Of a stretch of DNA of 64,000 nt, positions 1,983 to 2,593 are shown piece by piece. The stretch comes from Escherichia phage Ec_YwIITB1. Made by a program: the position numbers and the translations under genes. The stretch lies in the sequence record PQ356294.1; one strand, given 5' to 3'. The notes beneath the pieces are model-generated. The model did not search any database and was not told where the DNA came from. It saw only the letters and a program-made list of their open reading frames with translations. Positions within the stretch are counted from its first letter, which is position 1. Each line of letters starts with the position of its first letter.

Positions 1983-2063
1983 TCACTGGCGTCCGAAGAC
2001 GCCTTTGGTTTTAAGATTGTTACGATAGAACTGCATCACATGTTCGTTATGGAAATTACTCAT
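1983..2063 (-). CDS. stp: Stp peptide (26 aa) coding segment, in frame with the C-terminus of the ndd ORF
   Basis: Last 26 codons encode [26 protein letters not shown], which matches T4 Stp as recalled; internal ATG at 2063. Confidence 0.6.
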
Positions 2064-2534
2064 ACACACCACACATTTTGCATAATATACCTGCAAAACA
2101 AATTTAAAGTTATCAGCCAACATACGGTTCATTTCTTCAAGTGTTTGATACTCAGAATGATGATTACGAGTAAACGCTAAAGCTAACTGACCTTTTCCAA
2201 ATCCAGTCGTTAGAGGTTTCATCTTAGAAGCAGGCAAATAAAACACTGCGTATGGAACATTATTATTTGCAATAGTGCGCGCGAGCTGAGACCGACGTTG
2301 ACGAATATGACTTAGAACTGCACTGAACCCTTGTTTAGAACGCTGATTACCTACATAAAATCGTGCAGATACGCATGAACCATATGAACCATCGAATTCG
2401 CTTACTAAAAAGTAAAATCCAGGGTTAGATAAAATATCTTTGTGCGGAGTTCCCAAAAACCATTCACCGCCCTTGATTGTACCAATAACAGTTGCGCCTG
2501 CATTATTCAAATCAGTAACAGTCATATATTTCAT
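1983..2534 (-). CDS. ndd: Ndd-like nucleoid disruption protein ORF (183 aa as read, continuous with stp)
   Basis: ORF starting [26 protein letters not shown] in the ndd position between stp and denB; SD upstream. Confidence 0.6.
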
Positions 2535-2593
2535 GTTAATTTCCTCTAATTATTTTCTACTCCAAGGCCGCATGAATACACACGGCCGATAAA

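Follow-up and report, generated by a model that had tools for sequence, protein, structure and literature searches.

A probable natural allele of the ndd-stp locus, formed by deletion and recombination, in a T4-like (Tequatrovirus) phage

Stp is the classic case of a phage peptide with two effects, the blocking of a restriction enzyme and the triggering of an abortive-infection nuclease, and its form and mode of expression affect defence triggering. It is a delayed-early product of 26 residues, which is necessary and sufficient to activate PrrC, being its sole trigger, and which inhibits type IC restriction (EcoprrI, EcoR124I) (Uzan and Miller, PMC3014915). Residues 1-18 are almost invariant, and loss-of-function and laboratory stp suppressor mutations cluster at residues 4-14 (PMC3014915). 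In the 64,000 nucleotides of Escherichia phage Ec_YwIITB1 (PQ356294.1) that were analysed, which we refer to as the window, an earlier note had reported Stp to be encoded in frame at the C-terminus of the ndd ORF with no stop codon between them, and had suggested that a stop separating the two genes may be missing. The question is whether a stop has been lost here, by what kind of event, and what this would mean for the expression of Stp.

The fused frame and the alleles of the ndd-stp spot

The ORF list places the fused ndd-stp ORF at 1983..2534 on the minus strand of the window, the strand of all window features given below. It has an ATG start and 183 codons followed by a TGA stop, and there is no in-frame stop from the ATG (2534) of ndd, the nucleoid-disruption gene, to the stp stop (1983). 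Both parts are matched by full-length Pfam domains, Phage_T4_Ndd (PF06591) at residues 1-150 (profile positions 1-154 of 154, E 1.8e-87) and the Stp family Nuclease_act (PF08133) at residues 158-183 (positions 1-26 of 26, E 2e-19), and the PHROGs matches of the ORF, to phrog_1102 (PHROG 1102, E 1e-63) and phrog_6763 (PHROG 6763), agree with Pfam. The ORF is made up of the Ndd domain (2085..2534, ending in ...NFKFVLQVY; Pfam and alignment A3), a linker of 7 residues, YAKCVVC (codons 151-157 in the ndd/stp frame, 2064-2084), and the stp segment of 26 codons plus stop (1983..2063), the product of which is identical at 26 of 26 residues to that encoded by stp as annotated in T4. The in-frame position of Stp as the last 26 codons, and that of the internal ATG (2063-2061), are thus as the earlier note gave them.

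In T4 (NC_000866) ndd (165585-166040) and stp (165505-165585) share one base in the sequence TAATG, in which the TAA of ndd overlaps the ATG of stp, and the two genes are in different frames. T4 ndd has 456 nt and 151 codons, in line with the length of about 151 residues given in the note, and the stop that separates the genes in T4 is, as had been suspected, missing from the window. The arrangement ndd-TAATG-stp, which we call allele a, is present in T4, SsoM_113 and Sfk20 (alignment A1, of the window, T4 and three relatives). In allele b an ORF of 57 codons lies between ndd and stp; it is found in Shigella phage Shfl2 and Escherichia phages 101117BS1 and ime09, and also in JS98 and dhaeg of Dhakavirus and in UPEC01 of Gaprivervirus. 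The ATG of this ORF overlaps the ndd stop (TAATG), and its TAA is 5 nt past the stp ATG (ATGAGTAA). The window has allele c, in which the 57-codon ORF is reduced to its last 19 nt, TGCAAAATGTGTGGTGTGT (2082-2064). Its ndd frame has neither TAATG, the stop-start overlap of T4, SsoM_113 and Sfk20, nor ATGAGTAA, which 101117BS1 has together with TAATG. An in-frame stop between ndd and stp is present in T4, Sfk20, 101117BS1 and JS98, and in the contigs of P0001, the closest Ndd protein (96% identity), which carry the T4-type junction. That junction was found in 569 phage records with at least 80% coverage of an 86-nt probe, of which up to a few dozen may be two-piece matches from allele b, so that a fair range is about 530-570.

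The locus is like that of T4 in gene order (ndd.1, ndd, stp, ac, 52.1, 52) and in having an identical Stp protein, and T4 ndd is about 92% identical to the window ndd at the DNA level; but T4 makes two separate products via TAATG, whereas the window has one ORF, with the stop lost and 19 nt added. It is closer to the allele-b phages downstream, as its identity to 101117BS1 is 99.6-100% over the 19 nt 5' of stp, over stp and over the first ac-like gene, and the stp Shine-Dalgarno (SD) element and predicted hairpin are the same, but in those phages the ndd stop is present and the 174-nt small gene is complete, a gene of which the window has lost 147 nt including its start codon. On this comparison the ndd-stp spot is a three-allele indel hotspot. 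At a larger scale, the window starts at the point where the records of Shigella phages sb1-sb4 and pSs-1 also start, with about 96% identity over 25 kb (window 1-25000).

The 57-codon ORF is a real gene and is conserved. It has a match to phrog_5941 along its entire length (E 2e-27), and tblastn located it in 220 phage records from several Tevenvirinae genera. It adjoins ndd in every listed row with annotation, including those of Klebsiella, Serratia, Kosakonia and Erwinia phages. The product is a hydrophobic membrane protein with a Cys-rich C-terminal motif, ...CFERLCKMCG. The gene is at 1023-1196 in L001, 576-749 in JS98 (L005) and about 558-730 in L007, and in the window only 2064-2082 are left of it. 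It is absent from T4 and most Tequatrovirus records, and T4 itself is thus without a widely conserved small membrane-protein gene. It is polymorphic within Dhakavirus, as within Tequatrovirus: JS98 has it, and JS10 (H162) gives a one-piece match with 99% coverage to the T4-type junction probe, a difference that suggests either that alleles have been exchanged or that precise deletions between ATGA repeats have recurred.

Origin of the fused allele

Measured against allele b, exactly 147 nt are gone from the window, beginning with the final A of the ndd TAA and extending through ...GAACGTTTA. Deletion mapping puts the joint between 2083 and 2082, with a microhomology of TA, or of TTA on the window's own flank (2083-2085). 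On one side of it is the TA that made up bases 1-2 of the former ndd TAA (2083..2084, alignment A1), and on the other the 19-nt remnant TGCAAAATGTGTGGTGTGT (2064..2082), which is the 3' end of the 57-codon gene and equals the sequence upstream of stp in 101117BS1. The 19 remnant nt and the orphaned TA add up to 21 nt, or 7 codons, and it is for this reason that stp is in the ndd frame with the linker YAKCVVC. The loss of the stop is thus best attributed not to a point mutation in that codon but to a deletion, of 147 bp when compared with the allele that has the 57-codon gene.

The two sides of the joint also differ in their affinities. Sliding identity to 101117BS1 is 99.6% over window 2082-1820, and 99.6-100% from the joint through stp and the next gene, but only about 93% in the body of ndd, which is closest to that of SsoM_113 (allele a) at 96.9%. 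The joint is therefore a mosaic boundary as well, between a 101117BS1-like 3' side and a SsoM_113-like ndd. The event could have been a deletion in an ancestor with allele b, or else an illegitimate crossover at two 3' ends that resemble each other, ...ATTTGTTTTGCAGG... in ndd and ...ATCTGTTTTGAACG... in the small gene, a similarity seen with the 71-nt junction query.

We think it quite probable that the ndd-stp locus of this T4-like (Tequatrovirus) phage has a natural allele formed by deletion and recombination. In the ancestor, ndd, the 57-codon membrane-protein gene (phrog_5941) and stp would have formed an overlapping and translationally coupled chain, with TAATG at the first boundary and ATGAGTAA at the second. 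A deletion of 147 bp between TA/TTA microhomologies would then have taken the final base of the ndd stop together with codons 1-49 of the small gene, and the 19 nt left over would have placed stp in the ndd frame. The in-frame outcome is not statistically remarkable, since about one third of deletions preserve the frame and the 19-nt remnant is open in each of its three frames. The fusion can thus be taken as real at the level of the sequence, and gives no evidence of selection.

Allele c is unique in the databases searched, a singleton. The 71-nt junction query had no full-length match in 50,697 phage records, and an exact 22-mer junction pattern had no match in IMG/VR viral contigs or in GTDB genome contigs; the junction had no match in complete E. 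coli genomes either. Three metagenome matches to the 22-mer were put down to chance, as all three are in an unrelated gene. At the protein level the exact 183-residue sequence is not among about 15 billion proteins, and in a search of 5.8 billion protein clusters none of the matches listed was an Ndd homologue with a Stp tail; coverage of the ORF was at most 82% in all 120 Ndd homologues listed. Ndd homologues of 163-175 residues were considered as possible fusions and rejected, being cases of N-terminal extensions or mis-called starts. For the ndd-stp segment no record in the phage collection is more than 95% identical, and the present genome is therefore outside that collection. A literature search found nothing published on Stp with an N-terminal extension or on Ndd with a C-terminal one. 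Allele c could be a very recent or laboratory-passage variant.

Many records name Ndd 'naphthalene 1,2-dioxygenase' (P0001, P0025, P0044, P0055 and P0093; H7, H60, H139 and H141), which looks like an annotation error spread via the gene symbol ndd. Several of the records so labelled are 165-170-kb contigs of 'E. coli' or 'Klebsiella' assemblies that are really T4-like phage genomes.

There are two tandem ac-like small membrane-protein genes 3' of stp, MKFVHG... at 1820-1975 and MNIAK... at 1681-1809, a pair that is also present in 101117BS1, T4 having the MNIAK copy only. The latter (MNIAKLLG...) is the orthologue of T4 ac, for acridine resistance. Relative to T4, sb2 and 101117BS1 it has a 1-nt deletion between 1737 and 1736 that changes TCTGTATCGATG to TCTGCA-CGATG (alignment A2), and it is frameshifted after about codon 24, ending at 1681 with 42 residues; in relatives ac has about 51-52 residues and overlaps gene 52.1. 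The frameshift fits either relaxed constraint on the accessory block or some sequence imperfection.

Expected products of the fused frame

Ribosomes that initiate at 2534 meet no stop before 1985-1983, and the default product should therefore be Ndd-YAKCVVC-Stp, of 183 residues and about 21 kDa. The ndd start has a GAGG SD (2543..2546, -6.0 kcal/mol for the duplex with the 16S 3' end). This product runs 33 residues past the conserved Ndd end ...NFKF.LQxY. In alignment A3 all 36 homologues (44-96% identity) end within 0-2 residues of LQxY, and a further sample of 9 homologues ends there as well. As the Ndd C-terminus is fixed at LQxY in every homologue aligned, the 33-residue extension might impair Ndd. 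In an AF2 model made with a 37-sequence alignment, most blocks of the Ndd part have pLDDT 70-86 (moderate confidence). Residues 150-183 have values under 50 and no more than a short helix, at 165-176, and on account of that low pLDDT no packing of the tail on Ndd is predicted. The fusion point is directly N-terminal to the critical Stp segment 4-14.

Neither single-protein nor profile searches of the PDB found a sequence relative of Ndd, and Foldseek with the AF2 Ndd model (ma91369d5af57, window 2085-2534) gave nothing significant, its top matches being the GIY-YIG nucleases Hpy188I and T4 EndoII (E 0.17-0.9, TM 0.30-0.46). The GFYF...RFYVG motifs of Ndd are reminiscent of GIY...YIG, but assignment of Ndd to the GIY-YIG group was dropped, as hhalign of the Ndd profile with the catalytic domain of I-TevI gave 0.2% probability.

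It is known in T4 biology that two products can be made from one phage ORF by in-frame internal initiation. The window is like such systems in that a long product from the upstream start and a short one from an internal AUG with an SD element are expected. It is unlike them in that the arrangement looks like the accidental by-product of a deletion in one genome and not a conserved design. The internal start at AUG 2063 has a GGTG SD-like element 3 nt 5' of the ATG (2067..2070, positions -7 to -4, -5.4 kcal/mol). The note had recognised this start, but its description of the SD as weak is correct only in part, since T4 stp has only -2.5 kcal/mol, against -6.0 for ndd. The same element, with the same energy, is present in relatives with the 57-codon gene. 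Those relatives have the very same 19 nt 5' of the stp ATG as their stp initiation region, and as these are retained here, including GGTG, some free 26-residue Stp is probably still made by internal initiation. Free Stp from AUG 2063 thus remains plausible.

The yield is another matter. Alleles a and b have a stop codon, located at the stp AUG or shortly after it, that permits termination-reinitiation; the window does not have one, and with this coupling lost the yield of free Stp is probably lower. The fused allele thus appears to lack stop-start coupling while retaining the ribosome-binding site of stp. The stp start region has the same predicted hairpin in the window and in allele b, with a mean unpaired probability of 0.33-0.35, which fits with a start that would normally depend on upstream translation. 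Free Stp would then come from direct internal initiation on mRNA opened by ribosomes translating ndd, at a reduced level. It is conceivable that some coupling could be restored by a mini-ORF of 7 codons in the +1 frame, MQNVWCV* (2060..2083, seen in three-frame translation), which has its own ATG at the old TAATG site, an upstream AGGT (-3.9 kcal/mol) and a TGA that overlaps the stp ATG (ATGA), but this is speculative. A promoter/terminator scan gave no convincing promoter on the minus strand between ndd and stp, and nothing appears to point to a separate stp transcript. The terminator scan also picked up an inverted repeat, GGCGTC-TTCG-GACGCC (1988..2003), a hairpin of the C(UUCG)G tetraloop type within the last stp codons, which is followed directly by the stop codon of stp and by the SD of the gene after it and is kept in 5 of the 5 aligned phages.

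Alternative readings and significance

That there is nothing unusual here, with T4 and its relatives also reading ndd and stp as one continuous frame, can practically be dismissed, given that T4 has stp in a different frame after TAATG, that some 530-570 records have the T4-type junction, and that the listed Ndd homologues do not cover the tail, those sampled ending at LQxY. It is also unlikely, though less decidedly so, that the window carries an assembly or sequencing artefact or a minority variant, with a T4-type or 57-codon-gene allele being the real one and the 147-bp gap arising from assembly or consensus calling. Among the phage, viral contig, genome and metagenome records searched no other has the junction, the fused protein is absent from the 15 billion sequences, and the 1-nt frameshift in nearby ac could hint at an imperfect sequence. 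However a clean loss of 147 bp with 2-3 nt of microhomology and perfect flanks is typical of real illegitimate recombination and is unlike homopolymer or consensus errors, and the ac frameshift is outside a homopolymer and amid substitutions. Moreover mosaicism is a known feature of the accessory regions of T4-like phages, and at this very spot two other alleles coexist in nature.

It could also be argued that the allele is adaptive, in that the buried N-terminus of Stp and the lost coupling would lower or abolish PrrC-type triggering, or that the type IC restriction inhibitor would be tethered to Ndd bound to DNA. Stp is the sole trigger of PrrC and its suppressor mutations are at residues 4-14 (PMC3014915), directly after the fusion point, and Ndd is annotated as DNA/HU-binding in T4. 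We nevertheless regard this as quite unlikely: there is no sign of selection, the allele is a singleton, a third of random deletions would be in frame, and the stp codons and SD are untouched. In addition Pnk and Rnl1, the genes for which are outside the window, repair PrrC damage in wild-type T4-like phages (PMC3014915), so that the pressure to lose Stp is weak. That the Ndd-Stp fusion is a selected functional allele, be it a 'stp escape' masking the Stp N-terminus or a bifunctional restriction-inhibitor protein, we consider about as unlikely. If the former were true, PrrC-type anticodon nucleases would no longer be triggered, and if the latter, the DNA/HU-binding Ndd domain would bring the type IC inhibitor to nucleoid-bound restriction complexes.

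We prefer to see the allele as an ordinary accessory-gene deletion in a mosaic phage genome. As ndd and stp are both dispensable, non-essential accessory genes, it is most likely neutral or mildly deleterious and not a new function, and is probably of minor consequence. It is nonetheless a natural test case, in which identical Stp codons are present as the tail of a 150-residue protein and the coupling is lost, and comparison with T4-type relatives would tell if Stp can do without a free N-terminus and if its dose depends on coupling.
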